A DNA stretch of 64,000 bases from a bacterium (GTDB lineage: Bacteria; Patescibacteriota; Microgenomatia; Curtissbacterales; GWA2-41-24), in assembly GCA_021813945.1 (NCBI GenBank), contig JAKAJD010000002.1, positions 33,343-97,342 on the forward strand, read 5' to 3'. A program made the translations under genes and the position numbers. This document shows, piece by piece, positions 2,674-62,245 of the stretch. The notes below the pieces were generated by a model, which was not told the origin of the DNA, did no database searches, and saw only the letters and a program-made list of their open reading frames with translations. How positions within the stretch are numbered: the stretch's first letter is position 1; every line of letters begins with the position of its first letter.

Positions 2674-2675
2674 TT

Positions 2676-8246: not shown

Positions 8247-8252
8247 CTAAAA

Positions 8253-9803: not shown

Positions 9804-9804
9804 A

Positions 9805-12578: not shown

Positions 12579-12665
12579 CTTTAGATTTACTCCCCAGCCT
12601 TTTTCATCATTATTAAGTCTACTTTGCTTTAAGTTAGAAGTTGCTAGTATATTTAATTAGGCCCC

Positions 12666-46265: not shown

Positions 46266-47381
46266 TCACTGCAGATAATGAAGAAGCCTTGTCGGGAGAA
46301 TATCAGCGCCATAAATTACCACAAAAACCAAAAATACCCATACCACAACAGTTACAAGTAGCGGCGTGTCGGAAAGCAAAATTCTCTCTGGTGATTCACC
46401 TTCCTTTTTCTCATAAATTACATAAAGATATCTCATAACTCCATAAATCACAAAAGGTACACTTCCCATAAGCCATTTGGATGCCAAAAAGGTTCGAGGC
46501 AAATAGTCACCGAAAAGAACCAATACCTGAGGACCCGCAGAAGGAGGCGGTTGCAAAAAAGTAAACATTGTATACGAAAACCAGCAAGCTGTAGCAAACA
46601 TTACAGTCAAAGAATCCAAAAGTGTTTCGGGATAATGATGAAGAATTTCCCTTGTGTTAAGGTCCTTAACGCCTGCACCCAAAAGAAGTGTGCGCTCTGA
46701 TCGTCTTTTTCCTATGGCTAAAAATAATGCTAGAGAGGCAACCGTCAATATAAACCAGACGGTTACATGTGCGTCTATCAAAACTGCTCCGGTATAAACC
46801 CTTAGCAAAAATCCCGAAGCAATTGCCATCACATCAATTAAAATCAAAGATCTCAAAAACAAAGAGTAGGCTACTTGCAGTATTGCGTAAGCAAAAATAC
46901 CCCAAAAGAAAAAAGTTCCCAGCCCCCTAGCTAAAGTTAATGAGACCAAAACCAAAACCACAGCAGCAACGGATGCAACCTGGCGGCTAATTCTTCCTGC
47001 GGCAATGGGCCTTTTACTTTTAAAGGGGTGAGCTAAATCTGCCTTAAGATCTATGATGTCGTTCAGGATATAAATTCCCGAGGTCATCATCGAAAACACA
47101 AAAAAACCATAAATCGTCAGAAAAAATTTATCTGGATTAAAAAAGGCACCCTCAAATACGAGCGGTGCAAATATGGCGAGATTTTTTAACCATTGCCTGG
47201 GCCTTGCTGAAACAAGAACCCAAAATGGCAGCCATACTATGCCCGGCCCTTTGTTTGTAAATTGGTATTTAGCCAAACTAAACCTCCTAAAATTATTATA
47301 CCGATTAAGGCACCGGCAAAAACTTTCCCATTGCTTGGTAAAATTAGGGCAACGGCACCCAAAATAGCACACAAAAACCAA
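46266..47381 (-). CDS. UbiA-family prenyltransferase (decaprenyl-phosphate phosphoribosyltransferase-like, COG0382)
   Basis: RPRQWLKN, NDIIDLKADLAHPFKSKRPIAAGRIS (NDxxDxxxD), second D-rich motif. The annotated N-terminus overlaps the upstream gene by 145 nt, so the start is uncertain. Confidence 0.7.
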   Translation of the reverse strand: MVFVCYFGCRCPNFTKQWESFCRCLNRYNNFRRFSLAKYQFTNKGPGIVWLPFWVLVSARPRQWLKNLAIFAPLVFEGAFFNPDKFFLTIYGFFVFSMMTSGIYILNDIIDLKADLAHPFKSKRPIAAGRISRQVASVAAVVLVLVSLTLARGLGTFFFWGIFAYAILQVAYSLFLRSLILIDVMAIASGFLLRVYTGAVLIDAHVTVWFILTVASLALFLAIGKRRSERTLLLGAGVKDLNTREILHHYPETLLDSLTVMFATACWFSYTMFTFLQPPPSAGPQVLVLFGDYLPRTFLASKWLMGSVPFVIYGVMRYLYVIYEKKEGESPERILLSDTPLLVTVVVWVFLVFVVIYGADILPTRLLHYLQ

Positions 47382-48325
47382 TAAAACAAGGCAACTTGCC
47401 TTTGCGAAAAACCAATTTCCAAGAGTCTATGATGAAGATGACCCCTGTCTCCCAAAAAAGGAGATTTACCCGAAGCTATTCTTCTAATAACTGTAAAAAC
47501 ACCATCAGTTAAAGGCACTGCCATAACCAGAATTGCGGTTCCAACTTTTGCACCGGAAATAATGGAAAGAACAGCAATTAAAAATCCTAAAAAATATGAT
47601 GCCGAGTCGCCTGGAAAAATTTTTGCCGGATAAAAATTAAAGACTAAAAATCCCAGTGTTGCTCCGGCTCCTACTAAGGCGAGTTTGGCAACCATCATTT
47701 GTGTCGGGTCGACAAGCGAAAATCTTAAAGAAACAGCAAAGATTATAAAAAGAGCTACAAATGCAATGCCACCAAGTTGCCCGTCCACACCTGCCGAAAA
47801 GTTAACCATGTTAATAACCCAGATAATCCAAAAGACTGCAAAAAGATCTGCTATAACATAAATTGAATGGGTTCCAGCAAAATTGATTACAATTCTTAAT
47901 GTATCGAGCCTTATAATCTCTCCCAATCCAAAACCACCAAAAACATTAAGTGGGTTTGCAATAAAAGAAATTCCAATCCCAAATCCAACTACAACTAAAC
48001 TAGCGGCAATTTGCATTGCGAATTTAATCCATTTGCCCAAATCAGATCTATCGTCCCAAATACCTCCTAAAGTAAGAATAGCGCCTCCTAATAAAATTCC
48101 AGCGATTTGCTTCGTCGGACCTATCGTAAAAAGTACTGTAGCCAAAAATGAAAGAAAAATTGCCAAACCTCCCGCTCTAGGCACTGTTTTTTTATGAAGT
48201 ATGGCAGGATGCGCATGTTTTTTGGGATCATCAACCATTCCAAATTTTGTAGCAAATATCATGGTTACTGGAATTAAAATCAAAGAAAGCCCCAAAGCTG
48301 TTAAAAACAATAAAAAAAGACTCAT
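47237..48325 (-). CDS. Glycosyltransferase family 4 polyprenyl-phosphate sugar-1-phosphate transferase (MraY/WecA-like)
   Basis: ~10 TM helices, PRAGGLAIFLSF, and a DD-containing loop. Confidence 0.7.
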   Translation of the reverse strand: MSLFLLFLTALGLSLILIPVTMIFATKFGMVDDPKKHAHPAILHKKTVPRAGGLAIFLSFLATVLFTIGPTKQIAGILLGGAILTLGGIWDDRSDLGKWIKFAMQIAASLVVVGFGIGISFIANPLNVFGGFGLGEIIRLDTLRIVINFAGTHSIYVIADLFAVFWIIWVINMVNFSAGVDGQLGGIAFVALFIIFAVSLRFSLVDPTQMMVAKLALVGAGATLGFLVFNFYPAKIFPGDSASYFLGFLIAVLSIISGAKVGTAILVMAVPLTDGVFTVIRRIASGKSPFLGDRGHLHHRLLEIGFSQRQVALFYWFLCAILGAVALILPSNGKVFAGALIGIIILGGLVWLNTNLQTKGRA

Positions 48326-48756
48326 GCGATAAGTGAAATTATCTTGAAAAGATCATAAAAAGTAGCAATACCAACAACCAAAGCCGAAATAACCAATATT
48401 CTGTGCAAAAATCTATCCTCACCAAATATAGTAACTGCCAAAAGAAAATTTAAACTGCTAAAAATTGCAGTGGCTCCGGGTAAGATAAAAAGTTCATAAG
48501 GATTTGCAAGAACTGCCTCGCCCCATGGATGTGAATAAAAAAGCGGCAGTTGCGGCGGCAGCTTATGCCAAGAAACCAAAAGTAACAGAATTTGCAAAAC
48601 TACAGATCCCAGGCAAATAATAAATCCCCAAAAAAAGAATTTATCAGCCGCAAAATTTTTTTGAGCCTCCCGCCTAATTTCGAGTTTTCTGAATGGATTA
48701 TCTCTTATTCCCGAGCTGGTTGGAACGAAGGATGCATTTGCTTTTATATAACTCAT
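48322..48756 (-). CDS. Hypothetical small polytopic membrane protein
   Basis: ORF overlapping its neighbour by 4 nt; hydrophobic. Confidence 0.4.
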   Translation of the reverse strand: MSYIKANASFVPTSSGIRDNPFRKLEIRREAQKNFAADKFFFWGFIICLGSVVLQILLLLVSWHKLPPQLPLFYSHPWGEAVLANPYELFILPGATAIFSSLNFLLAVTIFGEDRFLHRILVISALVVGIATFYDLFKIISLIA

Positions 48757-48761
48757 AAAGT

Positions 48762-50252
48762 CTATCTTCCACTGTCCTTAACAAACACCTCAGCGCCGTT
48801 TATTTTTGCAACCGAAGTATACCTATTCGCAAGAAGCTTCTCAAGGCCTTCAAAATAACCTATCGAACTTTGGGGTTTGATGATATACGTTGGGGGATTT
48901 TTCTCTAGAGCTCGACTAACTTCCTCCTTGCCATTTGGAACTCCAAAAACATGAAACGAAGTCACGTATCTTGATGGGTTATGAAGATCTGCTATTGCAT
49001 AGAGCCAGGAAATATCTCCCCAAATATAAACCGATTTACCACTGGCCTTATTAAAATATAAAAAGTCAGAAAGTGCCATAATGGTATTAACATTTTTATC
49101 AAAAAAATCGTTATAAGCCCCTTCATTTTTGGCTCCTGTCGAATAGTCGACAAAATTGCGCCAATATCGAATCTGGTTAATCGGGCCGCCTGTTATAAAG
49201 TCCGAAAAAATTAATCTCGTCAGAAAAAGTAGTGGTATAAAAAAGCAAACCGCAAAAATTACCTTAGTTCTGTCGAGCTTAATTTTGGAAAAAGAAATTG
49301 AAGCCAAAAGAAGTGCGGTGCCTGGAGTTGCCTGGACCAAATAGTGTCCGTAAGTTCTCCCCGAAAAATAACTGCCTAAAAAAGAAATTGCCATCCACAG
49401 CAAAAAAAGGTGCCAAACTTCAACTTTTTTAAATTTAACTTTTTTGTAAAATCCATACAAAAAGGCCGCTAAAAGCGGCAAATATTTTGCAATATTTATA
49501 AGTTTCGCGTATTTAGGGCTTTCATTTAGGTAGATACGATAATATGTGTAAGCTGCGAATATGTAGTCACCGACTAGATGTTTTGGAGCAAAGTAGAAAA
49601 TTGTGACAATATATGGGATTAGAAACCCGAAAGTTAGTGCAAAACCCTTTTTAAAAAAATCAAAAAAATTCTCACTAGAAAGAAACAAAAACAACCCCAA
49701 AGCGCCAGCCTCAAATGCCCCAACCTGCTTATATAAAGACGCTATCGCAAATAGTATGCCTGCTAAAAAGCAAGATAACAAATCGAACTTTCGCTTAATA
49801 GCAACCATCATTGCAAGCGAAATTGGCAAGATCATAAATATCTCGGTTAAAGCCAAATCCCCTTCGATAAGCCTTAGTGATGTAATAAACCCAAAGATAC
49901 CGGCAGCCAAAAGCGCTCTTTTTTCGCCCAATACTTCTTGTGCAATTTCGTAAATCACAGCCGCAGTTGCAACTACCACCAAAGCTGCAACCAAATGCAG
50001 CCAAAACATCGAAACCCCGAAAACTTTAAAAATTGCCTGATATGTTAGATAAATCATCGGTGGTTTGTTATCCCAGGCAGTTTGGTACAAAACCCCTCCT
50101 TGATTTAAATTCCTCGCAACAGCAGCAAAAATACCCTCGTCTCCGTACCAGAATGGCTCAAAAATAGAAGGAAATCTCAAAAGAAATGTAGCAAAAAAGA
50201 TAAGGGAAAGAAAAATATGATGTGTCCTAAAATCTTTAACTAATTTTTTCAT
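48762..50252 (-). CDS. GT-C fold membrane glycosyltransferase (GT39/GT83, ArnT/PMT-like)
   Basis: Multi-TM N-terminal half with a DE-containing first loop (FWYGDEGIF) and a soluble C-terminal domain. Confidence 0.6.
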   Translation of the reverse strand: MKKLVKDFRTHHIFLSLIFFATFLLRFPSIFEPFWYGDEGIFAAVARNLNQGGVLYQTAWDNKPPMIYLTYQAIFKVFGVSMFWLHLVAALVVVATAAVIYEIAQEVLGEKRALLAAGIFGFITSLRLIEGDLALTEIFMILPISLAMMVAIKRKFDLLSCFLAGILFAIASLYKQVGAFEAGALGLFLFLSSENFFDFFKKGFALTFGFLIPYIVTIFYFAPKHLVGDYIFAAYTYYRIYLNESPKYAKLINIAKYLPLLAAFLYGFYKKVKFKKVEVWHLFLLWMAISFLGSYFSGRTYGHYLVQATPGTALLLASISFSKIKLDRTKVIFAVCFFIPLLFLTRLIFSDFITGGPINQIRYWRNFVDYSTGAKNEGAYNDFFDKNVNTIMALSDFLYFNKASGKSVYIWGDISWLYAIADLHNPSRYVTSFHVFGVPNGKEEVSRALEKNPPTYIIKPQSSIGYFEGLEKLLANRYTSVAKINGAEVFVKDSGR

Positions 50253-51616
50253 TGAGCCTTAAGTTTAAACCCATGATCTTTTATCTCAGTTGTGGGGCCT
50301 GGAGTCATCAAAAATACTTTGCCGCCAATGTCATCACTTAAAGTGACTTTACCGTCTAAAACGTATGTATCCAAAAGACTTTTTCCCGAAAACTGGACTA
50401 ATCCTTCAGGTAAAACCACTAGCTTATTGGTTAAGTTATTTCTTTCCTTATAATAAATTACTTCGGCAAAAGAAGGCAAAACCGTCACAATCGTATCACT
50501 GCTTTTAATTTTACTAACGACATTTTCGCTGTACTGCTCCCTAAAACCTCTAGGCTGGCTTGCAAAAGTTAAATAATCTATAACCAAACTTAAAATTAAA
50601 ATAAAACCAACACTAATTCTAAAAAGTTTCTCAGGTAATTTTTGAGATGCTTGCACAACTATCATCGAAAGTGGAATTGAGGCGCCAATTAAATATCTCC
50701 AGAAAAAAATGGGCCTGAAGGGAAACCTAACACCATCTATTTTTAGCCCTGGCAAAGAAGCCAGAATAAAGGGTACGATTGCCCATAACCATACCAAAAG
50801 ATAAGGTTTTTCAAATTTTTTATGGACTAGATGTTGAATTACACTTACAAGAAGAAGAATAATTGAAATCGAAAATAAAATAGTTCTCCAAATCGACTGA
50901 CTTTCGCCACCCAAAATTCGCTCGAATGCGTCAAAATACGTTTGTTTGAAATCAATAGGTGGAATCCAGTAGCTTGAGCCTACAGAGGCTATTTGGCCCA
51001 AAAGCACCTTAAGCCAAGGCAAAAAGAGAACCCCAATGATGGTATAAAGACCCATCATTCGCCAAAAAATTTTGCGATCAAAAAGTAAAAGATATAACCC
51101 CTGCGCTCCCAAGACAAACAGCATGTAGTAGTGGGTATAAACGCCTAAAGTGGTAAAAAGTATAAAAGAAACGGCTCGAAATTTATTGATTTTTTTTGAA
51201 AGCTCTAAAAGAAAAAAGACCGAACCGGTTGCGGCAAATGCAAACATTGTATAATTTCTAGCCTCAAATGCGTATCTAAAAAAAATAGGGTTTAGCGCCA
51301 CAACTGCTGCAGAAACAATACCGAACTGATGCCCCCTTACATAAGAGGCAAGCTTATAAACCATAAAAACTGTCAGAAAAAAGAAAACAATTGAGGGAAT
51401 TCTACTTATCACCTCTGTAGGCGGAAAAAATTTATACACAAGCTCAATTACGGTGTAATAACCAGGTGGGTGAAAATCCGCTGCAGTGGTTTTGAGCATC
51501 TGGTTATATGGTAGCCTTGAAATCATTGAGGTCCACGCCTCATCACCCCAAAATCCGCGGCTCAAATAGTTTTGGGCAAGTAAAGTAAACACACCTAGTC
51601 CTAAGTATATGCTCAA
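50249..51616 (-). CDS. GT-C fold membrane glycosyltransferase (GT39/GT83, ArnT/PMT-like), paralogue
   Basis: FWGDEAWT in the first loop, ~11 TM helices, and a 4-nt overlap with the downstream paralogue. Confidence 0.6.
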   Translation of the reverse strand: MSIYLGLGVFTLLAQNYLSRGFWGDEAWTSMISRLPYNQMLKTTAADFHPPGYYTVIELVYKFFPPTEVISRIPSIVFFFLTVFMVYKLASYVRGHQFGIVSAAVVALNPIFFRYAFEARNYTMFAFAATGSVFFLLELSKKINKFRAVSFILFTTLGVYTHYYMLFVLGAQGLYLLLFDRKIFWRMMGLYTIIGVLFLPWLKVLLGQIASVGSSYWIPPIDFKQTYFDAFERILGGESQSIWRTILFSISIILLLVSVIQHLVHKKFEKPYLLVWLWAIVPFILASLPGLKIDGVRFPFRPIFFWRYLIGASIPLSMIVVQASQKLPEKLFRISVGFILILSLVIDYLTFASQPRGFREQYSENVVSKIKSSDTIVTVLPSFAEVIYYKERNNLTNKLVVLPEGLVQFSGKSLLDTYVLDGKVTLSDDIGGKVFLMTPGPTTEIKDHGFKLKAQ

Positions 51617-51666
51617 AAATTCTCTCTGACAATTAACCTCCCCCTAAAATATGTATAATAAAATTA

Positions 51667-52368
51667 ATGCCCGTAAAAAGAAGCCAAAATAAAGAAAAAA
51701 ATTACAACCTTTCATCTTCTTGGATCATAAATAACACTTCAGGCCTTTTTTTTGGATTTATCTTAGTTTCAGCAGTTGGTTTAGTTTATAGTCTGGTTTT
51801 GTCAATGGACCCAGCACTTAAAGTTTCTGGCTATGCTGTTATATTTGCAGGCATACTTCAGGGTACAATTTTGGCTGAGTGGCAAATTAAAGCGCTCAAA
51901 AGCTCATTTCCGAAGATAAATGCGATAAATTGGATCCTCCTTACCGCAATAGCCTCGGGCTTGGTTTGGTTTTCTGTTATTGCCCTACCTGTATCTAAGA
52001 TTTTTCCAACCGTATCTCAAGAATCTACAAGACAAACTTTTGTTTATACTCAAGCTGCCAAATCATTAAGCATCGGTTTACTTTTCACCTCAACAATAAG
52101 CTTTCTTGCCGGCCTATTCTTAGGGTATATAGTTAGCTTTCTTCAGTGGCTTGAACTTGGAAGGCACGTTAAAACGTCATTTGCTTGGATTTTCTACAGT
52201 TCTCTGGCTTGGGCCTTTGGCTTCAGCTCAATCATAATTTTGTTAACTAAGCTTCCTTACACTAATCTATCAACCCTAGTCTTATCAGCTATACTAACTT
52301 TTCTAGTAAGTTCCTTTATCATTTCCATGGTATCTCTTTTAGGAGTGCTGGCTCTTAAGAAGAAATAA
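51667..52368 (+). CDS. Hypothetical polytopic membrane protein
   Basis: ORF; hydrophobic. Confidence 0.4.
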   Translation: MPVKRSQNKEKNYNLSSSWIINNTSGLFFGFILVSAVGLVYSLVLSMDPALKVSGYAVIFAGILQGTILAEWQIKALKSSFPKINAINWILLTAIASGLVWFSVIALPVSKIFPTVSQESTRQTFVYTQAAKSLSIGLLFTSTISFLAGLFLGYIVSFLQWLELGRHVKTSFAWIFYSSLAWAFGFSSIIILLTKLPYTNLSTLVLSAILTFLVSSFIISMVSLLGVLALKKK

Positions 52369-53454
52369 TTAGTGAGCCCCAGACAGCTCTTCCTTCCAGT
52401 CATTAAAACGTTTTGTCAGATCAATACTGTCAAGTGGGAAACTCCCTAAGTTAAATTTTCCAAATCCGTAATTTAAAAGAGTTGCCGCCGCCATGTCTCT
52501 ATCTTGGATAGAACTTGCTCCGGAGATTATGGCCATTAATTTATGCCCTTCACGCTCGGAAGTTACAATTGTTGAATAACCTGCATTTTCCGTATAACCA
52601 ATTTTTAATCCATCAACACCTGGATAAGTTCCCAAAAGGGCATTCCAGTTAGGTAAATCGTAAAGTTTATGATTTTGATTGGCATCAAGCTTCTTATATA
52701 AGTCAGAGGCAGCATTGGCAATATCAGGATAGTTCACTTTTGCATCATGGGCAATTATTGCCAAGTCGTAAACGGTTGAAAAGTGATTTGCATCATCAAG
52801 ACCCGTTGCTGTTACAAAATGCGAATCGGCAGCCCCTAATTTTGAAAGCTTAAAATTTACCAGGCCCATAAAGCCGGATAGGCCTATTCTGTATTCGGAC
52901 CCTATTGAATCTGCTATTGCTTGGGCCGCATCATTAGCACTTGTCATAATGGCTCCCCCTATAGCTTCATCCAATGTTAATTTTTCCCCAGTTTTTAATC
53001 CTAAAATTGTCGGGATTTGTCCGCTGGCATTGTCCGTTACGGAAATCAAATGTTCGCCTCTTGCCAAATCCAGTGCCGTTGTCACAGTCGCCAGCTTAGA
53101 AAGGGAAGCGGGAGCAATTTTCTGCTTTAGGTTCATCGACCATAAAACGTCTCCTGTGTCAAAATCTAAGATTGCACCCGCCTTAATAATCGGCAGTGTG
53201 TCCAAGTATTCACCGGAACCCCAGCCTTTTGGGTGCCAAGTTGAATCGCCTTTAATATTCGCCTGTGCGGCAACCAGTGTAGATTTACTATCCAGAACTG
53301 TAGCAGAGGTTCCTTTTTGCACACTTGGATTCACCACAAACATCAAAGCAATAAGCGCTGACATGATAAAAATTACCAAAATCCTTTTATTGAAAAACCT
53401 CAGTAAGTCTAAAAATCTAAAAAGCCTGTTTTGTAAAGTTGAAAGTGAAATCAT
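52369..53454 (-). CDS. dacA: D-alanyl-D-alanine carboxypeptidase (peptidase S11, PBP5/DacA-like)
   Basis: SxxK (ASLSKL), SxN (TSAND) and KxG (KIGYT) motifs, plus an N-terminal TM/signal. Confidence 0.75.
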   Translation of the reverse strand: MISLSTLQNRLFRFLDLLRFFNKRILVIFIMSALIALMFVVNPSVQKGTSATVLDSKSTLVAAQANIKGDSTWHPKGWGSGEYLDTLPIIKAGAILDFDTGDVLWSMNLKQKIAPASLSKLATVTTALDLARGEHLISVTDNASGQIPTILGLKTGEKLTLDEAIGGAIMTSANDAAQAIADSIGSEYRIGLSGFMGLVNFKLSKLGAADSHFVTATGLDDANHFSTVYDLAIIAHDAKVNYPDIANAASDLYKKLDANQNHKLYDLPNWNALLGTYPGVDGLKIGYTENAGYSTIVTSEREGHKLMAIISGASSIQDRDMAAATLLNYGFGKFNLGSFPLDSIDLTKRFNDWKEELSGAH

Positions 53455-54680
53455 AGCTTATACGCCAGTTCGCTTGGTGCAAATTTTTCCTTAAGAAGTG
53501 CCCATAAATTATTATCACCAGAATCATATCCCAAGGCCCATATTCCCACTCCCGCCAAATTCTTTTCTTTTGCAAAATCATACTTTAGGCCAAGCGAATT
53601 CTTGTCCTCCATATAGACAACATGCCATCCCTCATTGTCCCAATAGCCCCTCCATGAAACTTTAGCTGTGTTATCCCACCCTCCAACAGGAGTTGTCGCG
53701 AGAAGTTTTTCTGAGTCTGCCTTATCAGCTGTTGTTGGAGTGGCCTCTGTCCAGCTGACGCTATCTGAACGGGGTGACGGATTGTAAGCATAATAATTCC
53801 AGCCATAATAAGGAACGCCAAGAATAATTTTTCGGGGATCGGCTACTTTTATAAAATCGTCAACTGCAGTTGAAACATCATACCAGAATGGACCGTGGCC
53901 ATCGTTGTAACCATAAAGAGGCGCGGAAGGGCCAATAGATTTTGAATCTGGGGTGTAATAATCGTAAGCCATCATAAATATTCCATCAGTAGATTTTGAA
54001 AGAGATGAAATATCGTATATTTTATCGAAGCGTACTGATGATGCCAAAACCGAAACAGTCACATATGGGTTATTAAGCCGTTTATGGAGTTCTCCACTAT
54101 AAAATGCCATAAATTTAGAAAATTGTGATTTTAAAGAATCATCAGATGGAATATATTCGAAATCTATGTTCACGCCATCCAAATTTCGGCTTTTTAAAAC
54201 ATCTACAGAATCATCCGCAAGCCGGCTCCAAGCACTTTCGTCTCCCAAAAAAGTTTCAATATCGGCCGAATTCATTTGCGTTAAAGTAACAACTTTTCTA
54301 ACCTTATGGTCGTTCGCATTTTTGAAAAGGGAAGCAAGCCTTGGTCCATTAAAGGTTTCCCATTCGAAAGATGTTTTATCAATCGACCCGTCGGAATTAA
54401 CCGGCAGCGAAAAATATGCAAAAGTTGTAAGAGTATTCCAATCCACGTTATCTAACTTATCCAACAACCAGAAAGGTGCAAAACCGAAAACTTCGCTAGA
54501 TTTATGCACTACTGGCTGCAAATGAAGCATGCCCTGAATACTTTTGTTTTTTGAGATCAATAATGAACCCAAAAAATATGTTCCAATGATCAAAACCGCA
54601 ACCAGGATAAAAAGCCCAAAAAAAAAGATTCTCCGGAGGGGATCTGGCAGATTTAAGTCCATGAGTTGCGACTTTACCAA
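53451..54680 (-). CDS. Glycoside hydrolase family 18 (chitinase/YaaH-like) protein, membrane-anchored
   Basis: LDGVNIDFEY matches the DGxDxDWE catalytic motif. Confidence 0.65.
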   Translation of the reverse strand: MVKSQLMDLNLPDPLRRIFFFGLFILVAVLIIGTYFLGSLLISKNKSIQGMLHLQPVVHKSSEVFGFAPFWLLDKLDNVDWNTLTTFAYFSLPVNSDGSIDKTSFEWETFNGPRLASLFKNANDHKVRKVVTLTQMNSADIETFLGDESAWSRLADDSVDVLKSRNLDGVNIDFEYIPSDDSLKSQFSKFMAFYSGELHKRLNNPYVTVSVLASSVRFDKIYDISSLSKSTDGIFMMAYDYYTPDSKSIGPSAPLYGYNDGHGPFWYDVSTAVDDFIKVADPRKIILGVPYYGWNYYAYNPSPRSDSVSWTEATPTTADKADSEKLLATTPVGGWDNTAKVSWRGYWDNEGWHVVYMEDKNSLGLKYDFAKEKNLAGVGIWALGYDSGDNNLWALLKEKFAPSELAYKL

Positions 54681-54736
54681 GTGAAAACTTGCATGTCAAA
54701 TTTTAGCTTCAAGGCCAAAAACGATATAATCAATAT

Positions 54737-54994
54737 ATGGATGTACCAAAAGGTGAACCGGAGAAAATCGCCGATATAACAGCTAGAAAAATAATCGACC
54801 TCATTGGCCGCCCCGCTCCTGTCAAACGAATCCGAAATAGCCAACTCGCATCTGCAATCTTAGGGGCGGTAGGTTTTGCTCTTTTTATGAGCGGAGCAGG
54901 TAGAATCCTCGGTGATATTTCGCCACTCACTTCAATTTTTTTGGGAATTTTAGTAATGGTTATTGCAGGGGTTCTATTTCAAAAACTTCAATAA
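54737..54994 (+). CDS. Hypothetical small membrane protein
   Basis: ORF with a C-terminal hydrophobic helix. Confidence 0.3.
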   Translation: MDVPKGEPEKIADITARKIIDLIGRPAPVKRIRNSQLASAILGAVGFALFMSGAGRILGDISPLTSIFLGILVMVIAGVLFQKLQ

Positions 54995-55043
54995 CTTCAA
55001 TAACTTGTCTGCCAAGCCTAGGTAAATATTGATTGAATCGTTT

Positions 55044-56093
55044 TTAATTTTCAGGTCTCCACTCACCAGTAGTAAAATCAAGCCCTTTTTTCCCTATATT
55101 TAGCCAATACTTATTTTCTTCAGCGCTAATGTAGTTATTTGAATCAGCCGCACTTGCCCCAATAACATTCATTGCATGTGCAAGTCTCACAAAAAGAGGT
55201 AAAGTTTTTAGCTCATTTTCGCTTAAGCTAATCCCGGCTTTCTGATACTCACTAAGCGCCCATGAGTACATGTCTGGAAATTTTTCAGGATCTTTGGGAT
55301 CAAACAGAAGGTCGCTGCACAGTACAGCCAAGTCGACAATCCGTGGATACCAGTTAGCAACAGAAAAATCAATAATATAAATTTTTCCGTCACTATGCCT
55401 CATAACGTTTGTCGATCTAATGTCTCCGTGAACAAAAGCTTGTGGCAAATCATCTGGCCTGACTAAACTCAATTCGCCCAGCAAACTTTCAATAGTTTGC
55501 CTTTGTCTTTCTTCGATTCGCTCTTTATTTTTCTGGTAAGTTTCTGAAGCATTCGTTATTGCCCACGAGTCTTTTACAGGTGTTGGTTGATATTGGCAAC
55601 TGTTAATTTTGGCAGTTTCTTGAACTACTGCAGCCAGCTCATTTGTACTCAATTGCTCTTGGCTTTCCCACACATTTCCTCCATCTAAATATTCCATAGT
55701 ACATACCCAAACATCACTGTCGCCAATAGATATAGTTGTTAAAGGGGAATGTTCACTATTTGAGTAAATAAACGGAGTTGTTACCTTGCCCCTTCCTAGA
55801 GCTGCTTGAATCATCTCGATATACCTAACGCATTCTTCTTGGCTTCTCCAAGCTGCAAAACATTTTGTGAAGAATTTTCCGTTTGAAGTTTCTAAAACTA
55901 AATTAAAATCTTCGTAACCGTTCTGTTTTATTTCGTGACCTACATAGCTGCCAAAATCATAATTTGCTACAACAGCCTCCATGAATGGTTTTAAATCACC
56001 ATGATAGGCAATTCGTTCTTGAGAACCGATACCTGGATAACTTGAAGGGTGTCTCTCAATTTTTCCAAAGCTCATTGTTGGATCAAATATCAA
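55044..56093 (-). CDS. Aminoglycoside/choline-kinase-like phosphotransferase (APH family)
   Basis: VHGDIRSTNVM and IIDFSVANW (Brenner and DFG-like motifs). Confidence 0.65.
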   Translation of the reverse strand: MIFDPTMSFGKIERHPSSYPGIGSQERIAYHGDLKPFMEAVVANYDFGSYVGHEIKQNGYEDFNLVLETSNGKFFTKCFAAWRSQEECVRYIEMIQAALGRGKVTTPFIYSNSEHSPLTTISIGDSDVWVCTMEYLDGGNVWESQEQLSTNELAAVVQETAKINSCQYQPTPVKDSWAITNASETYQKNKERIEERQRQTIESLLGELSLVRPDDLPQAFVHGDIRSTNVMRHSDGKIYIIDFSVANWYPRIVDLAVLCSDLLFDPKDPEKFPDMYSWALSEYQKAGISLSENELKTLPLFVRLAHAMNVIGASAADSNNYISAEENKYWLNIGKKGLDFTTGEWRPEN

Positions 56094-56136
56094 ATATCAA
56101 GCATTCTCAGTTACTCTATTCACAGAAAGGGTCTAG

Positions 56137-57627
56137 TTAGACCTTCTCAGTTACTCTATATTCGAGATATTTTCCAAGCATCAGCCTTGTGTGAGCATCA
56201 ATTCCTGGTAAAGCGGTAAAAATTAAAGTTACAATTGGCATTAGGATAAATTCAAGTGGCATAGTAAGTTTTTTGAAAAGAGTTGCATGTTCAGATCTTT
56301 TTGGCCTTTGCCTCAAATCGACAACTAAAATAACTGCTAAAAATAGCCAGCAAGTCGTAAGTATCCCAAAAGAAATCCTAGGTAAATTTTGTCCCATTAC
56401 AGTTTGTGCAAATACTGGGTTTAAAAGCACTGGAATTGTTGCACCAAGTGTAACTGCAAACCAATTTACAGGCCAAAGGAAATGATCTTCTAATACAATA
56501 AAAACCCTTACAGTTTTTTTCCAAAAAGGGATGCGCGTTGAAGTTAGCCATTTTTTTATAAAGTAGGCATCATCAGAAACCCCCCAAGCCCAGCGTTTTT
56601 CCTGTTCATATAAATTAAGTAGCGATTTGAAATAACTTGTTGATTCAGCAGCATCGGTAATTGCCGAAAGAAATATTGGTTCAACATCAACGTTTCCGTC
56701 TTTGGCAAAAAAAGTTTTAAAAAATATCCTGAAATCCTCAGGTATTACGTCGACGTCCCAATATCCAACATCGTCTAAAAGTTTCATAGACACCGAATAG
56801 ATCGAGCAGTTAACCAACCTATCTGTCCTCGAATTAACAGCAGTCTGCCAAACTGAAGAAAGTGAACTAATGACCCTAATTGGCGCCGGTACTCTCCAAA
56901 TATTTGCATAAAATAAAACAACCGGCTGCCAAAATCTTAAATATCTGTGCCTGCTAGTTAGAAAGTTATAAGTTAGGCATGAAAAATATTTAGGTGAAAG
57001 CTCGCCGTCTGCATCTTTAGATGTAACAGTCATCATTTTTATATCCATTTTCTTGTCTATTATTAGCTGTTGTTTTGCGACCTTAACCGCATAAGCTTGG
57101 TTGGATGACTTTCCTTTAACTTCTCTTGCGATATCTGGATGGAAAGTCACAATCAAATTCGCAAACGCACCCTTATATTTTTTGGTTAAAATCTGCGCTT
57201 TTTCATAAGCATCATTGCCTTCCCGCTCTTCAAAGGCTAAAACGACCGAAATTTGCTTTTTGTTAAAATCCTGTTTAAGCAAGGATTCAATTCCACGGGT
57301 AATAGTTCCGAGCGGTTCTTTGTAAGTTGGCACAATTACCAAATGATGAATTTTTTTGTAACCTTTAATTTTTTTGGCGTCAGTTAACCAATCGTATTTT
57401 TCACTAGCTCTAAGTTTCAAGTGTGAAACCACTGCAGAAATAGCCATGGCTGCCGATTTATAAAACCAGAAAATATCAAAAAGAATAATATAGTAGGCAA
57501 CGTAATGAGGAATCCAAAAAGAACCCCAAACCGGAAAAAGTATTAAAGTCCACGAAAAAGTCCCTGGCAAAATTTCCAGGAACCGGTGTACCGGTCTATC
57601 GTGTCGCTCAACGAAGTCCTTAACCAT
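56137..57627 (-). CDS. Membrane-embedded glycosyltransferase family 2 (processive synthase-like architecture)
   Basis: LVIVPTYKEP..., GKSSNQAYAV, and TM helices at both ends. Confidence 0.55.
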   Translation of the reverse strand: MVKDFVERHDRPVHRFLEILPGTFSWTLILFPVWGSFWIPHYVAYYIILFDIFWFYKSAAMAISAVVSHLKLRASEKYDWLTDAKKIKGYKKIHHLVIVPTYKEPLGTITRGIESLLKQDFNKKQISVVLAFEEREGNDAYEKAQILTKKYKGAFANLIVTFHPDIAREVKGKSSNQAYAVKVAKQQLIIDKKMDIKMMTVTSKDADGELSPKYFSCLTYNFLTSRHRYLRFWQPVVLFYANIWRVPAPIRVISSLSSVWQTAVNSRTDRLVNCSIYSVSMKLLDDVGYWDVDVIPEDFRIFFKTFFAKDGNVDVEPIFLSAITDAAESTSYFKSLLNLYEQEKRWAWGVSDDAYFIKKWLTSTRIPFWKKTVRVFIVLEDHFLWPVNWFAVTLGATIPVLLNPVFAQTVMGQNLPRISFGILTTCWLFLAVILVVDLRQRPKRSEHATLFKKLTMPLEFILMPIVTLIFTALPGIDAHTRLMLGKYLEYRVTEKV

Positions 57628-57662
57628 ACTATCCTCTAGTAATTATACAAATTGGAATTTTA

Positions 57663-58475
57663 TCATAATCGGAACAAATTTTGCGCGTTGGAAGATGTGG
57701 CAGTGGCAATATCATCAAAAGACTGGTTTCTGATTTTACTTAGGAAGCTAGCAATTATTTTAACATTCTCTGGTGTATTTTTCTTGCCACGCAAAGGCTC
57801 TGGAGAAAGGAAAGGGGAATCCGTCTCAACAAGAATTCTCTCAATAGGTGCCGTTTTGGCAACTTCTTGGATCTCAGAAGCGTTTTTGAACGTTACAATT
57901 CCTGAAAACGAAACGTAAAATCCTAAATTCAAAGCTTTCTCCATTGCTCTGAAATCACCGGTCCATGAATGAAAAACGCCTCTTAATTTGGAGTTTGGAG
58001 TTTGGAATTTGGGAATTTGGTCAAATATTTCATCCCAAGCATTCCTACAATGAACAATCAAAGGCAAATTCAAATCAGCCGCCAATTCTATTTGTTCGTC
58101 AAATAATCTTCTCTGAAATTCTTTCTCTTTATCACTTGTTTCTGGTCTTTGGCTACTTGTTTCCAAATGAAAATCCAACCCGCATTCACCAATTCCGACA
58201 ACTCTTTTAGATGATTTGGCAATTTTTTCCAACTCGCCAATCAATTTATCACCATATTGATCGATATCAGTTCTCCCATCTTCCGGATGAATTCCACAAG
58301 TTGCGTAAATCGAAATATCATTGTCTGAGTATTTTTCCGCAATCTCAATGCATTTTTTTGATCCTTCAATCGATGTTCCAATTGTCACAATTTTCAAAAC
58401 TCCAGCCTGCTTGGCTCGATAAATTGTACCTTCCAAATCTTCAACAAAATCCAGATGGGCGTGTGAATCAAGCAT
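57663..58475 (-). CDS. tatD: TatD-family metal-dependent DNase/hydrolase
   Basis: MLDSHAHLDF...IGECGLD...HCR...ETDSPF. Confidence 0.85.
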   Translation of the reverse strand: MLDSHAHLDFVEDLEGTIYRAKQAGVLKIVTIGTSIEGSKKCIEIAEKYSDNDISIYATCGIHPEDGRTDIDQYGDKLIGELEKIAKSSKRVVGIGECGLDFHLETSSQRPETSDKEKEFQRRLFDEQIELAADLNLPLIVHCRNAWDEIFDQIPKFQTPNSKLRGVFHSWTGDFRAMEKALNLGFYVSFSGIVTFKNASEIQEVAKTAPIERILVETDSPFLSPEPLRGKKNTPENVKIIASFLSKIRNQSFDDIATATSSNAQNLFRL

Positions 58476-59903
58476 TTAAATTCGGGGAAACAAAGGTTTC
58501 TCAGCAGTTACCTTTCCGGTAAACTGATTTAAAATTTTTACAGAAGTTTGGGGCAAAAATGGACCTAAATTAAATGCAATTTCGCGAATTTCCTGGGCAA
58601 TCGGTGAAATCACTTGCTTTAGATCAGCACCTTCAAGCTCCCATGGTTTTTCTTCGTTAATTTTTTTATCCAGTTTTGAAATTTCCTCCCAAAGTGAAAG
58701 AATTGCTAAATCAAATCTGTAATTTCTTAAATTATTAGAGACAGCATTTTTAAAAAAGAAATTTTTCTTTGGAGGTAAAGCAAGATTTGTATCACTTGCA
58801 AGCCGTGCCACTCTTGCCACCAAATTACCTAACCCGTTTGCCAACTCACCATTATATAAATCACGAAATCGGTTTAGAGAAAAGTCACCATCACCCCATG
58901 CCGGAATCTCACGCAATAAATAAAATCGGACGGCTTCAGACCCAAAGTCACTTACCAAATTAAAAGGGTCAATCACATTACCTAAAGTCTTGGAAATTTT
59001 TTGTCCGTCAACTGTAATGTAACCGTGTACAAACTCTTCATCCGGCAGTGGCAAACCAGCCGATTGAAGCATTGCTATCCAATAAACAGCATGAAATCTT
59101 AAAATTCCTTTCCCTAATACCTGAATTTTTTTGGAATTTGCATCCTCCCAAAATTTGTTAAATAGTTTTTGATCAGAACCTCCATATCCCAATGCCGTCA
59201 AATACGTCGTCAACGCATCAAACCAAACATACATAACCTGCGAATCGTCACCTGGCACCGGCACACCCCAGCCTCGGGCGCGTTCTCTTGACCTGGAAAT
59301 GGAAAAATCTTCGAGTCCACTTTTTATAAAACTCAAAACCTCATTCTTTCTCGTTTGTGGAACAATCAAAAGTTTATCTTTTTCAATTAAATTTTCTAGA
59401 AATTTTTGATAGTTTGACAGGTTAAAGAAATAGTTTTCCTCCTCAACTTCATCTGGTTCGGTTAAATGCTCAGGGCACTTGCCACTAACGAGCTCGTCTG
59501 GTGTATAAAATAACTCACAGCCGATACAATACAAGCCGCGATACTGCTTTTTATAAATATCTTCTTTTTTACAAAGCGACCAGAGTTTTTGTGCACCGTA
59601 AAAATGCTCCTTAGAGCTTGTCCTGTTAAAAACATCAAACGTTAAATTCAAAGCGCCCTTAAGGTCAAAAAATCGCTTTGAGTATTTATCAACCAAATCC
59701 TTAGTTTCAACACCTTCTTTTTCCGCCGCCTGAACATTTTTCAGGGAATTTTCATCCGCTCCATCCGAATAAAAAGTCTCATATCCCAAAGCTCTGTAAA
59801 ACCTTGCCAAACAATCGGCTTGCACGTACTCCAGCGCATGTCCTACATGTGGTGCCGCATTAACATAAGGAATTGCCTGTGCTATGTAAATATGCTTTTT
59901 CAT
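58476..59903 (-). CDS. metG: Methionyl-tRNA synthetase (compact, 475 aa)
   Basis: PYVNAAPHVGHA and KISKTLGN. Confidence 0.9.
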   Translation of the reverse strand: MKKHIYIAQAIPYVNAAPHVGHALEYVQADCLARFYRALGYETFYSDGADENSLKNVQAAEKEGVETKDLVDKYSKRFFDLKGALNLTFDVFNRTSSKEHFYGAQKLWSLCKKEDIYKKQYRGLYCIGCELFYTPDELVSGKCPEHLTEPDEVEEENYFFNLSNYQKFLENLIEKDKLLIVPQTRKNEVLSFIKSGLEDFSISRSRERARGWGVPVPGDDSQVMYVWFDALTTYLTALGYGGSDQKLFNKFWEDANSKKIQVLGKGILRFHAVYWIAMLQSAGLPLPDEEFVHGYITVDGQKISKTLGNVIDPFNLVSDFGSEAVRFYLLREIPAWGDGDFSLNRFRDLYNGELANGLGNLVARVARLASDTNLALPPKKNFFFKNAVSNNLRNYRFDLAILSLWEEISKLDKKINEEKPWELEGADLKQVISPIAQEIREIAFNLGPFLPQTSVKILNQFTGKVTAEKPLFPRI

Positions 59904-60014
59904 AAGGTCCGATTATATCCAGAAAAGCCTTACTAATCCATTCTCAATCAATTATTATTTGAAGGATATATCAAGTTAAATTATAATCGACAGAAAAATC
60001 TAACAGAAGCCATC

Positions 60015-60839
60015 ATGAATTTGCAAAATATTTCCCAGTATTATGATTCAATGTTACCTTTTTACCGTATTCGCTTCAGCACCAGCTACGGCTTTCATGT
60101 TGGTTATTATGATGAAGATACAAAAAGTAGAAAGGATGCAATTCTCAACTTAAACAAATTAATGGCAGAAAAGGCCGAAATAAAAGATGGAGACCTAATC
60201 TTGGATTCGGGCTGCGGCGTAGGAGGTAGTTGCCTTTGGCTAGTCGATAATTATGATGTAAAAACTATTGGAATAACAATCTCGAAAAAGCAGTTGGATG
60301 TAGCAAAAAAACTGGCTAAAAATTCAAGAATCTCAAAAAAGGCACAGTACTACTTAAGAGATTATACAAAAACTGGTTTCGAAGAAAATATGTTTGATGT
60401 GATTTGGGCAGCAGAGAGTGTTTGCTATGCAACAAGCAAGCCCGATTTCTTAAAAGAATCGTACAGAATTTTAAAAAAAGGTGGTCGCTTGATTGTTGCA
60501 GATGGAATCCTAAAAAGAAAACCAAAAGACGAGAAAGAAAAAAAGCTTTTAGTACAACTTAACAATGGATATGCATTAGAAAATAATACTTTACAAAAAG
60601 ATTTTGAAGCAGACTTGACTAGAGCAAAATTTAAGAAAATAAAATATTTGGATATAAGTAAACGTATTCTTCCTGGTCTGAAGATTCCCTACAAAATCTT
60701 TGTACCAATAGCAACTTTAACTGAAAAGTTAATGCTAACCCCAAAATCTTTGACAGGGACACTTAAAGCAAGCGCTGCCCTTAAAGAACTTGTCAAAAAC
60801 GGTTTGGTGAAATACATGATTTTTTATGCTGAAAAGTAG
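60015..60839 (+). CDS. Class I SAM-dependent methyltransferase (Methyltransf_11/CFA-synthase-like)
   Basis: ILDSGCGVGGSCLWL motif I and RILKKGGRLIV post-I. Confidence 0.75.
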   Translation: MNLQNISQYYDSMLPFYRIRFSTSYGFHVGYYDEDTKSRKDAILNLNKLMAEKAEIKDGDLILDSGCGVGGSCLWLVDNYDVKTIGITISKKQLDVAKKLAKNSRISKKAQYYLRDYTKTGFEENMFDVIWAAESVCYATSKPDFLKESYRILKKGGRLIVADGILKRKPKDEKEKKLLVQLNNGYALENNTLQKDFEADLTRAKFKKIKYLDISKRILPGLKIPYKIFVPIATLTEKLMLTPKSLTGTLKASAALKELVKNGLVKYMIFYAEK

Positions 60840-60841
60840 TC

Positions 60842-62245
60842 TTAACGGAGAGGATACTTTGAGGGCGATCTAATGATTGAAATTAAGCCTCCCAAGTATG
60901 ACATTTTGTATTTTCCTTTCACTGTAACTTTTTCCCATACATCCGGTAAAGTTTGCCTAGCGAAAAACTTTCTTCTTAAGTAGTCATATTTTTTGAAATC
61001 GTAAATTTCCCAGAAATCTTTTTTAGAATAATAACTGTGCGCATACATAACCTTCCTTCCCCCCAAAGCTTTAAGTTTTTTCTCGATAACATGATTTAAG
61101 CTAAGAAGTGTTTCAACTGATTCGCTTTGCCTTTGCCATACTCCAATGTCTAAAGAGTCCTCATTTACAAAAGTTGGTGAAAGAAATCTCTCTCCCGTTC
61201 TTTTTAAAGGACATAACCATATTGGGTATATTTTTATTTTTTTATGGCAGAAGTCCAAAAATTTTTGGGCACTTTTGTTAGGCAAAATTAGATCCTGAAT
61301 GATGGAATTTTGGGGGCTTTTTAAAGCTTGTAGGAGCCGATACATTCGGTGTGTTTTAAATATTGGGTTTAATAAAAACCGAGTAATCCTATTAAAAGGA
61401 ACTTTGTATGTTTTAAGAATAAATTTACCGGTCCAAAACGCTCCGCGGTCGTATCTGAATAAATATTCACGGATTGGAATGGTCTCATTCCAGATTTTAT
61501 ATTTTTTTGCTATCTCTTCTGCGTGCACATAGAACCAGTCATCAGTTGCTTTTGAAAAGGTAGAAACAGGTGATTCTTCTTTATCGTCCATGGTTCCCAC
61601 CATTACTACTCCCAAATTTTTTGAAAAAAGAATACCATCCACAAAATCAACATTTTTCTTTGTATTGTTTTTTATAACGTTTAGCACCTTTTTAAAACTG
61701 GTTGTTCGAATATAGGTAAGCCGCACGTATTTTTTAGCTGGAATCAATTTGAGCTTTGCACATGTGGTTATCCCGATAGAGCCGTATGAACTAGCAATTC
61801 CATGAAACAAATCCGAATTTTTGCTTTTGCTCACATTTAATGTTTTTCCGTTCCCAAGCACAATTTCATATTCGCTGAAACTTTCGTCAAACAGTCCCCA
61901 TTTAAATGAGCTACTTTCACCGGCACCACCCTGGATTCCTCCACCCACGGTAATTCCAGGAAATTCCATAACAACGGGAGGTATAAGTCCATACTTCAGA
62001 GTCTCATCAACAAGCCTATCCATTGGAACATTTGGCTCAACTATTGCATATCTTCTAGTCTTGTTAACATTTAATACCTGATCAAAATTGCTAATATCTA
62101 TAATTTCATTTTTCTTAAAAGAAAGAACTCTCGTTGAATTTGATGACCCATGGTAAATTCTCACTTTTCTTGCAAGTCTATAATTTTCTGCCATTTCAAG
62201 ACTCAGCATAGAAACCTTGCTAACGTGGTTTTTAGACAACTCCAT
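60842..62245 (-). CDS. FAD-binding oxidoreductase (FAD_binding_4; DprE1/ALO-like)
   Basis: RYAIVEPNVPMDRLVDETLKYGL...GITVGGGIQGGAGESSSFKWG. Start taken at the internal Met MELSKN, 2 nt after the PBP stop. Confidence 0.7.
   Translation of the reverse strand: MELSKNHVSKVSMLSLEMAENYRLARKVRIYHGSSNSTRVLSFKKNEIIDISNFDQVLNVNKTRRYAIVEPNVPMDRLVDETLKYGLIPPVVMEFPGITVGGGIQGGAGESSSFKWGLFDESFSEYEIVLGNGKTLNVSKSKNSDLFHGIASSYGSIGITTCAKLKLIPAKKYVRLTYIRTTSFKKVLNVIKNNTKKNVDFVDGILFSKNLGVVMVGTMDDKEESPVSTFSKATDDWFYVHAEEIAKKYKIWNETIPIREYLFRYDRGAFWTGKFILKTYKVPFNRITRFLLNPIFKTHRMYRLLQALKSPQNSIIQDLILPNKSAQKFLDFCHKKIKIYPIWLCPLKRTGERFLSPTFVNEDSLDIGVWQRQSESVETLLSLNHVIEKKLKALGGRKVMYAHSYYSKKDFWEIYDFKKYDYLRRKFFARQTLPDVWEKVTVKGKYKMSYLGGLISIIRSPSKYPLR

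Follow-up and report, generated by a model that had tools for sequence, protein, structure and literature searches.

Can a bacterium of the candidate phyla radiation (CPR) make a lipid-linked pentose and deliver it to glycosyltransferases at its surface? The question is raised by a gene cluster in a 64,000-nucleotide stretch of Curtissbacterales DNA (contig JAKAJD010000002.1 of assembly GCA_021813945.1; hereafter the window). The closest relatives of the window's proteins are in Candidatus Curtissbacteria, a Microgenomates lineage of the CPR, and identical proteins also occur in NCBI assembly GCA_027349345.1. The initial annotation joined eight genes spread over ~16 kb into one pathway resembling the arabinan synthesis of actinobacteria. 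The core of this region is probably a six-gene envelope-glycan module, conserved over Microgenomates and WWE3, that makes a lipid-linked ribofuranose donor for glycosyltransferases of the GT-C fold. Its genes encode a UbiA-fold enzyme, a GT4-family transferase, a small membrane protein (h144), two GT-C transferases (GT-C a and GT-C b), and a GT2 synthase.

The gene set was checked by Pfam and NCBIfam profile scans of the main open reading frames (ORFs) and by sequence searches of the PDB. All ORFs named in the initial annotation lie at the positions it gave and carry the domains it assigned, with the exception that the GT2 protein of the window has no Pfam match; its homologues carry PF13632. 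An Rfam scan of the whole window returned zero matches.

The ORF of the UbiA-fold enzyme extends mechanically to 47381, but its most likely start is the TTG at 47276, because an AGGAGG lies 7 nt upstream and the resulting 336 residues equal the length of homologues and public gene calls. The protein matches Pfam PF01040 with 53.5 bits (cutoff 34.2). Its best NCBIfam matches are the decaprenyl-phosphate phosphoribosyltransferase (DPPRS) models, at 205 (NF008977), 185 (NF008978), and 131 bits; a related model, built on a UbiA protein with a second domain fused to it, reaches 149 bits. The two leading DPPRS models (NF008977 and NF008978) run ~160 bits ahead of any model outside this related group; those for ubiquinone (4-hydroxybenzoate), heme O, chlorophyll, and archaeal ether-lipid prenyltransferases reach at most 41 bits. 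The sole PDB sequence matches are two entries of Mycobacterium tuberculosis Rv3806c (8j8j at E 1e-27, residues 20-242), to which the protein is 34% identical over 220 aligned positions. The proven polyprenyl-phosphate 5-phosphoribosyltransferases (PPPRS) of M. tuberculosis, Pseudomonas aeruginosa, and Citrobacter youngae share 31-34% identity with one another (PMC11127046).

Profile scores and active-site mapping served as a proxy for phylogeny in placing the protein within its family. The Rv3806c structure paper lists the residues that bind Mg, pyrophosphate, ribose, and the 5′-phosphate, and it reports that ordinary UbiA enzymes do not conserve those in contact with phosphoribose (PMC10994848). 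Rv3806c R22, K28, Y70, N73, D77, and K87 correspond to R25, K31, Y69, N72, D76, and K86 of the window protein, and R90, Q135, Y138, K143, and Y157 to R89, Q134, Y137, R142, and F156. Nine of these 11 positions, which bind Mg or phosphoribosyl pyrophosphate (PRPP), are thus identical, while K143 is replaced by Arg and Y157 by Phe, a residue also found there in some mycobacteria (PMC10994848). Across 80 CPR homologues, all 11 positions are invariant or conservatively substituted.

From the DPPRS scores, the Rv3806c matches, and the retained PRPP-binding residues, we conclude that the UbiA homologue is a predicted PPPRS. The initial annotation had assigned it to the DPPRS type, an assignment that is upheld, and the protein does not belong with the quinone or ether-lipid prenyltransferases. 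It is extremely improbable that the protein is an ordinary prenyltransferase of quinone, heme O, chlorophyll, or archaeal-type ether-lipid synthesis that makes no pentose donor. As a PF01040 member below the curated DPPRS cutoffs it could be taken for one, but its scores for the other subfamilies are far lower, the phosphoribose contacts K28, Y70, Q135, and Y157 of Rv3806c are conserved, and the window showed no genes of quinone or heme synthesis. To our knowledge, CPR bacteria generally lack quinone pathways.

The UbiA gene appears to be the last of a translationally coupled operon on the minus strand. The order is GT-C b, GT-C a, h144, GT4, and UbiA, with successive junctions of a 4-nt overlap, a 5-nt gap, a 4-nt overlap, and a 40-nt overlap. 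Given this spacing, and the AGGAGG Shine-Dalgarno sequence of UbiA inside the 3′ end of the GT4 gene, the interval 46266-51616 is read as an operon that couples five of the six core genes in this genome. The same features support the initial grouping of UbiA with the GT4 gene and the pair of GT-C genes. A promoter scan was at chance level (38 sites vs. 37.4 expected), and terminator-like sites numbered 19 vs. 12.7 expected, about 1.5 standard deviations; the transcription unit was defined without either.

The GT4 protein is a putative polyprenyl-phosphate N-acetylhexosamine (HexNAc)-1-phosphate transferase (PNPT), a WecA/TagO-like paralogue of MraY. It matches Glycos_transf_4 (PF00953) with 111.7 bits, and its PDB matches are MraY and GPT. 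Among the NCBIfam models, ECA_wecA scores highest with 105 bits, vs. 50 bits for MraY, both below their cutoffs. Its motifs WDDRSD, NMVNFSAGVDG, PGDSAS, and HLHH conform to the PNPT pattern DDxxD, NxxNxxxGxDG, GDxxS, and HxHH. The alternative of a housekeeping MraY was rejected because the WecA model scores twice as high.

PDB sequence searches with both GT-C proteins and the GT2 protein, as single sequences and as profiles, gave nothing significant, and folds were therefore taken from AlphaFold2 (AF2) models and Foldseek. GT-C a (PF13231, 41.6 bits) has a model with a predicted local distance difference test score (pLDDT) of 82 that matches STT3, ArnT (TM-score 0.56), AglB, PglB, AftD, and AftA, and its loop-1 motif D38-E39 is invariant. 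GT-C b is just 26% identical to GT-C a, around a common FW(Y)GDE motif, and is by sequence a very distant paralogue.

The GT2 protein has the invariant motifs D205-A-D207, E297-D298, and Q342-E-K-R345-W346, which correspond to D/DxD/ED/QxxRW. Its model (pLDDT 71, moderate) shows a GT-A domain joined to transmembrane (TM) helices at both termini. Over the whole length, the top Foldseek matches are the Chlorella-virus and Xenopus hyaluronan synthases and BcsA (E 3e-9 to 1e-6, TM-score about 0.5). The enzyme is therefore modeled as a synthase that is probably processive. A GtrB-like polyprenyl-P-sugar synthase was rejected on the basis of the QxxRW motif and the synthase fold.

The protein h144 has about three TM helices and matches no Pfam or NCBIfam family above threshold. 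Pfam searches at E up to 1 with h144, h179, h233, h236, and other recurrent neighbors gave only noise and one weak DUF1648 match, in one member of the h144 family. A conserved extracytoplasmic loop, W-x-K-L-P-P-x-x-P-x-F-Y-S-x-P-W-G-E, follows the first TM helix. h144 is a candidate accessory subunit or flippase. Taken as a whole, the content of the operon is best read as supplying extracytoplasmic GT-C enzymes with a lipid-linked pentose donor, as was initially proposed.

Gene order was compared by tblastn and ORF clustering at 81 loci with a UbiA homologue, including as much as 10 kb on both sides of each. Fractions for partner genes are given over the loci with enough flank, while counts out of 81 are uncorrected. 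The UbiA family comprises 1192 representative clusters at E ≤ 1e-30, and a pattern scan that took a single genome for every GTDB species located at least 566 loci/species-level genomes encoding a UbiA relative. The best 80 relatives belong to Curtiss-, Beckwith-, Woese-, Collier-, Gottesman-, Chisholm-, and Blackburnbacteria, other Microgenomates, and WWE3.

A same-strand GT4 gene accompanies UbiA at 64/73 loci and abuts it at 57/65. The synthase-like GT2 is present at 43/56, directly upstream of the GT-C or h144 genes, and h144 at 41/69. At least one GT-C gene lies near UbiA at 38 of 63 loci, and both GT-C a and GT-C b at 14 of 58. Uncorrected, GT4 co-occurs with UbiA at 66 of the 81 loci, GT2 at 45, h144 at 40, and GT-C a at 38; the corresponding counts are 0 for the FAD (flavin adenine dinucleotide) gene and 1 each for the methyltransferase, the APH kinase, and h233. 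The recurrent order is MetRS-TatD-GT2-(0-2 GT-C)-h144-GT4-UbiA, where MetRS is methionyl-tRNA synthetase; on its other side UbiA is flanked by a PEGA-SH3 lipoprotein (59/67), then by an M23 peptidase and GroEL. The portion from GT2 to UbiA recurs from Curtissbacteria to WWE3, and the six core genes are contiguous in one locus (L001, on a 978-kb contig).

The core genes stay together far more often than chance would predict. GT2 belongs to the operon unit despite its distance in the window, as it is contiguous with the unit in relatives. For the kinase, methyltransferase, and FAD genes, a link to the core is not supported: these genes, together with the S11 peptidase and GH18 genes, are found near UbiA at 0-5 of the 81 loci. 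The proposed single cluster of eight genes therefore breaks up, with the S11 DD-carboxypeptidase, GH18, TatD, and MetRS genes intervening, and neither the APH kinase nor the S-adenosylmethionine (SAM) methyltransferase that it had included can be retained as a pathway member. APH, GH18, and S11 were rejected as members because they are not conserved with the operon.

In the proposed pathway, the UbiA-fold enzyme would move 5-phosphoribose from PRPP to polyprenyl phosphate at the cytoplasmic face of the membrane, as its homology and conserved active site suggest. The 5-phosphate would then be removed and polyprenyl-P-ribofuranose flipped, and h144 or the polytopic membrane protein h179 is the only local candidate for these steps. 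One or two GT-C enzymes, assigned by fold, would add pentofuranose from the polyprenyl-P donor to an acceptor outside the membrane. To judge from operon membership, a glycan is the probable acceptor: the WecA-like transferase would prime it as polyprenyl-PP-HexNAc, and/or GT2 would polymerize and export it.

Systems of a PPPRS, a flippase, and a GT-C enzyme add ribofuranose, xylofuranose, or arabinofuranose to glycans; ribofuranose is the default product, and DprE1/E2 or ORF13 epimerases convert it to arabinofuranose or xylofuranose (PMC11127046). The sugar delivered here is most likely ribofuranose rather than arabinofuranose, because neither the window nor the recurrent neighborhoods of the homologues showed an epimerase, whether of the DprE1/DprE2 type or another. 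Pfam scans of the window's main ORFs detected no DprE2-like short-chain dehydrogenase/reductase (SDR) and no Rv3807c-type PAP2 protein, and neither recurs within 10 kb of UbiA at the 81 loci. The same holds at these loci for epimerase-, SDR-, PAP2-, HAD-, MATE-, and GtrA-like families in general. A DprE2-type step, as implied by the analogy to arabinan synthesis, thus has no reductase in the window or in recurrent neighborhoods. The only flippase-like gene of the window is a Wzx-type Polysacc_synt gene at 23368-24648, 22 kb from the operon.

A more specific version of the pathway is put forward only tentatively. It holds that the genes form an ancestral, vertically inherited wall or surface-glycopolymer pathway, common to Microgenomates and WWE3, in which GT2 and the WecA-like enzyme build the glycan, ribofuranose decorates or partly builds it, and unrecognized proteins (h144 or h179) replace the phosphatase and flippase. 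In a radical and purely speculative sub-variant, the 5-phosphate would be kept, and the PNPT would use polyprenyl-P-ribose-5-phosphate as its phosphate acceptor.

Several points weigh against a lipid-linked ribofuranose module. The reading is bioinformatic throughout, and the UbiA protein falls under the curated NCBIfam cutoffs, although these are close misses (205 vs. 234 bits for NF008977 and 185 vs. 207 for NF008978). No phosphatase (PAP2/HAD), MATE/GtrA/SMR-type flippase, or epimerase was recognized in the window. The GT-C fold is silent on the donor, with ArnT and STT3 matching at least as well as AftA and AftD, and the GT2 model is of just moderate confidence. The block has no GT-C gene at about 40% of loci, which indicates that the PPPRS has no strict need for an adjacent GT-C enzyme. 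It also contains MetRS, TatD, and GroEL, and CPR synteny alone is no proof of common function.

The last two points would also be expected if the genes were adjacent only through CPR synteny and served separate envelope processes, for example the priming of a wall polymer, exopolysaccharide production by a synthase, and O-glycosylation of proteins from a hexose donor. This alternative is unlikely, though it deserves weight: the M23 peptidase is conserved in the block along with MetRS, TatD, and GroEL, many lineages lose the GT-C genes yet keep UbiA, GT4, and GT2, and in WWE3 two unrelated genes stand between GT4 and UbiA. However, gene overlaps and Shine-Dalgarno coupling tie GT-C b, GT-C a, h144, GT4, and UbiA together, and GT4 abuts UbiA at the large majority of loci over phylum-level divergence. 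GT4, UbiA, and both GT-C families act on polyprenyl-phosphate-linked substrates, and GT2 is membrane-embedded too. Insertions in Microgenomates fall between GT2 and GT-C or outside the unit, and never within h144-GT4-UbiA.

The donor chemistry could also be as proposed and the acceptor a protein, with the PMT_2-type GT-C enzymes O-glycosylating pilins or S-layer and other surface proteins with pentofuranose. CPR cells carry abundant pili, the GT-C enzymes match PMT_2, which sources name GT39, and the fold matches include STT3, PglB, and PMT. TfpW, which arabinosylates P. aeruginosa pilin, is a precedent (PMC11127046). This possibility is nonetheless given only a small chance, since the WecA-like primer and the processive GT2 synthase in the operon point to a glycan, the conserved block contains no pilin or S-layer gene, and the PMT_2 family is broad enough to take in ArnT-like transferases of lipids and glycans.

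The full decaprenylphosphoryl arabinose (DPA) logic would add a second enzyme of arabinan synthesis: UbiA would make polyprenyl-P-ribose, the FAD protein at 60842-62245 would act as DprE1, and the GT-C enzymes would polymerize arabinofuranose. Both the FAD protein and DprE1 belong to the FAD_binding_4/VAO superfamily, and DprE1 is nominally the best NCBIfam model of the FAD protein. The match, however, reaches 43 bits (E 3.5e-11) against a cutoff of 500 and covers the FAD-binding subdomain only (residues 69-224); GlcD and lactone-oxidase models score about the same. DprE1 chains in the PDB reach 18-26 bits, below cytokinin oxidases and galactonolactone dehydrogenase (GLDH). In contrast, tblastn against plasmids found full-length homologues annotated as 'FAD-binding oxidoreductase', and residues 27-415 align to a Tsukamurella FAD oxidoreductase in a bfaA-like context at E 3e-44, a near-full-length match.

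Gene context leads in the same direction. The FAD gene is absent near UbiA at 81/81 loci, MetRS and TatD separate it from the operon, and the window holds no DprE2-like SDR. In three relatives (L006, L017, and L018), the gene for penicillin-binding protein 1A (PBP1A) abuts MetRS, which indicates that the methyltransferase and FAD genes between these two are an insertion in the window's lineage. The full DPA logic is thus very improbable. DprE1, glycolate oxidase, and MurB were each rejected as identities of the FAD protein on the basis of protein length and full-length homology. The initial annotation had named kinship to glycolate or lactate oxidases as an outcome that would undo its proposal; the FAD protein is not closest to these enzymes, but the DprE1-like role intended for it fails nonetheless.

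The FAD and methyltransferase genes are convergent and lie 2 nt apart, and the pair is better explained as a predicted module in which a lipid double bond would first be methylated and afterward reduced. CPR bacteria are presumed to be unable to make fatty acids and to scavenge lipids; in such a cell, the pair could remodel unsaturated acyl or isoprenoid chains. Residues 69-446 of the FAD protein also match, at E 9e-63, a sequence taken to be human DHCR24. The Tsukamurella homologue lies within an SRPBCC/FAD-oxidoreductase and SAM-methyltransferase locus (L082), and a Variovorax homologue adjoins a SAM methyltransferase. In the bfaA/bfaB arrangement, an FAD oxidoreductase and a methyltransferase make 10-methyl fatty acids (PMC5660069, PMC7791843), and by its likeness to the arrangement in PMC5660069, L082 appears to be a true bfaAB locus. 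The window shares with the BfaA/BfaB system a near-full-length homologue of the actinobacterial FAD oxidoreductase and a neighboring Cfa/CMAS-family methyltransferase. It differs in that its genes are convergent rather than co-directional, its methyltransferase is short and matches a BfaB-like enzyme only in part (E 2e-12, 125 residues), and its host is a CPR bacterium.

The mycobacterial DPA pathway consists of Rv3806c, Rv3807c, DprE1/DprE2, and Rv3789, followed by GT-C enzymes of the Aft/Emb type, with WecA priming arabinogalactan. The window shares the active-site residues of the UbiA-fold PRPP:polyprenyl-phosphate phosphoribosyltransferase, a WecA-type primer, and extracytoplasmic GT-C enzymes. 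Unlike the mycobacterial pathway, it has no detected DprE1/DprE2, PAP2 phosphatase (Rv3807c), or GtrA-family flippase (Rv3789), and its GT-C enzymes are short PMT_2-type proteins rather than Emb/Aft proteins with carbohydrate-binding domains. It adds a hyaluronan-synthase-like GT2 and h144, its likely sugar is ribofuranose, and its CPR genome is about 1 Mb.

Small modules that modify surface glycans offer a second comparison. In the Gtr and GacI-GacJ-GacK-GacL systems of hexose modification, a GT2 polyprenyl-P-sugar synthase works with a small membrane partner, a flippase, and a GT-C enzyme. The window resembles these in that its donor is a lipid-P-sugar, its operon includes a small membrane protein, and its GT-C enzymes are extracytoplasmic, but its donor synthase is a UbiA-fold PRPP enzyme, and its GT2 has the QxxRW motif and synthase fold rather than GtrB architecture.

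The three-component system of C. youngae O1/O2 comprises ORF15 (a PPPRS-PRP protein), ORF14 (MATE), and ORF12 (a GT136 GT-C enzyme) (Kelly et al. 2024, PMC11127046). In this type of system, a PPPRS likewise makes polyprenyl-P-ribofuranose for an extracytoplasmic GT-C enzyme, with ribofuranose as the default where no epimerase is present. The pairing by which such systems are recognized, a PPPRS with a nearby GT-C-fold transferase, occurs in the window within one operon, and more elaborate pentofuranose systems with several GT-C genes have been reported (PMC11127046). In contrast to the C. youngae type, the operon has no fused HAD phosphoribose phosphatase or MATE flippase, its PMT_2 GT-C enzymes have no C-terminal carbohydrate-binding module and are coupled to a PNPT and a processive GT2, and the module, conserved vertically over Microgenomates and WWE3, forms a core block and not a variable O-antigen accessory. 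The D-arabinofuranosylation of P. aeruginosa pilin, which uses a PPPRS, DprE1/E2 homologues, and TfpW, shares the PPPRS homologue and a GT-C enzyme, and the acceptor in the window could likewise be a surface protein; unlike that system, the operon has neither DprE1/E2 homologues nor a pilin gene next to it.

The PPPRS and GT-C logic of pentofuranose transfer is thus already known, whereas the lineage, the core-block status, and the composition are different: a PNPT, h144, and the hyaluronan-synthase-like GT2 are added, the GT-C enzymes are of the PMT_2 type, and no phosphatase, flippase, or epimerase is recognizable. A literature search combining CPR or Patescibacteria with decaprenyl or polyprenyl glycan pathways returned nothing relevant, and PMC11127046 does not mention CPR.

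Table 1. Positions and assignments of the core genes and of the genes around them in the window.
Feature	Position	Strand	Details
Polyprenyl-phosphate 5-phosphoribosyltransferase, predicted (PPPRS; UbiA fold, Rv3806c type)	46266..47276	-	336 aa
GT4: polyprenyl-phosphate HexNAc-1-phosphate transferase, putative (PNPT; WecA/TagO-like MraY paralogue)	47237..48325	-	362 aa
h144: conserved small membrane protein	48322..48756	-	144 aa; between GT-C/GT2 and GT4
GT-C a (PMT_2; named GT39-like by sources)	48762..50252	-	496 aa
GT-C b (PMT_2)	50249..51616	-	455 aa; PF13231, 42.9 bits
Lineage-specific insertion: 233-aa membrane protein h233, S11 DD-carboxypeptidase, GH18, 85-aa ORF h85, APH-family kinase	51667..56093
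GT2: synthase-like membrane protein (hyaluronan/cellulose-synthase fold)	56137..57627	-	496 aa
Cfa/CMAS-like SAM methyltransferase	60015-60839	+	274 aa; CMAS 80 bits, Methyltransf_11
BfaA/DHCR24-like FAD reductase, predicted	60842-62245	-	FAD_binding_4, 49 bits; start at 62245 as in the initial annotation
PEGA-PEGA-SH3b lipoprotein	44356-45186	+	lipobox LSGC
h179: polytopic membrane protein	45250-45789	+
h146: single-TM protein	45786-46226	+

The insertion between GT2 and GT-C b is confined to close relatives of the window. The S11 and GH18 genes are found there in the window and in the closest Curtissbacteria (L003, L004, and L007), and the window block also contains h233, h85, and the kinase, whose APH domain scores 60.6 bits in Pfam; h233 and h85 are common to L003. 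L001, L006, L014, and every other lineage lack the insertion, and in them GT2 lies directly beside GT-C or h144. The GH18 protein is membrane-anchored and has the motif DGVNIDFE, in which Asn replaces the usual middle Asp. Its position beside a chitin/hyaluronan-synthase-like GT2 hints at a polymer containing N-acetylglucosamine, a pairing seen in just 5/81 loci.

On the other side of the operon, the PEGA-SH3 lipoprotein is the most constant neighbor of UbiA, and h179 is present at 32/72 loci, including WWE3. Beyond the lipoprotein lie an M23 peptidase, a bPH_2 protein, and GroES/GroEL. In 18 loci of the WWE3 type (L043-L080), a Wzy_C gene (O-antigen ligase/polymerase-like) lies about 1.8 kb downstream of UbiA. 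The window has its own Wzy_C gene at 22129-23352, next to the Wzx-like flippase gene and likewise about 22 kb from the operon, and a 956-aa DUF4012 protein follows at 25620-28490. MetRS (58476-59903) is a short, 475-aa form with no C-terminal domain matched, and a 624-aa protein with VanW and PG_binding_4 domains is encoded at 33526-35400.

The remainder of the window contains a type IV secretion-like region at 142-14669, with a PrgI-family protein (8253-9803), a TraG/VirB4-like ATPase (10704-12578), and an AAA and Trans_reg_C regulator (6718-7974). Large ORFs with no Pfam match encode 843 aa (142-2673), 1308 aa (2676-6602), and 667 aa (12666-14669). The segment 17214-22103 resembles a replication origin (dnaN, dnaA, rnpA, yidC, and jag); the cumulative GC skew falls monotonically over the full 64 kb, with no turn at dnaA. 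Many related contigs of metagenome-assembled genomes (L002, L008-L010, L017-L020, and others) are titled 'uncultured Gammaproteobacteria', 'Pseudomonadales', 'Saccharibacteria', or, in one case, 'Spirochaetia'. These contigs have the Microgenomates/WWE3 gene order and UbiA proteins 44-85% identical to that of the window, and their titles look like placeholders or errors.

CPR bacteria are difficult to grow in culture, and hardly any information exists on what makes up their cell envelope. If the proposed pathway is correct, ribofuranose or an epimer of it would be present on a surface glycan or glycoprotein, and the pathway would occur in at least 566 species-level genomes. A chemistry known from the walls of Mycobacteriales, some O antigens, and pilins would then extend to a very distant, genome-reduced lineage, seemingly as core equipment, and h144 may be a new component of lipid-linked pentofuranose pathways. 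The analysis also removes a pitfall of annotation: DprE1 is the wrong name for the FAD_binding_4 protein. Together with its neighboring methyltransferase, this protein may modify lipids, which would be notable in presumed lipid scavengers.

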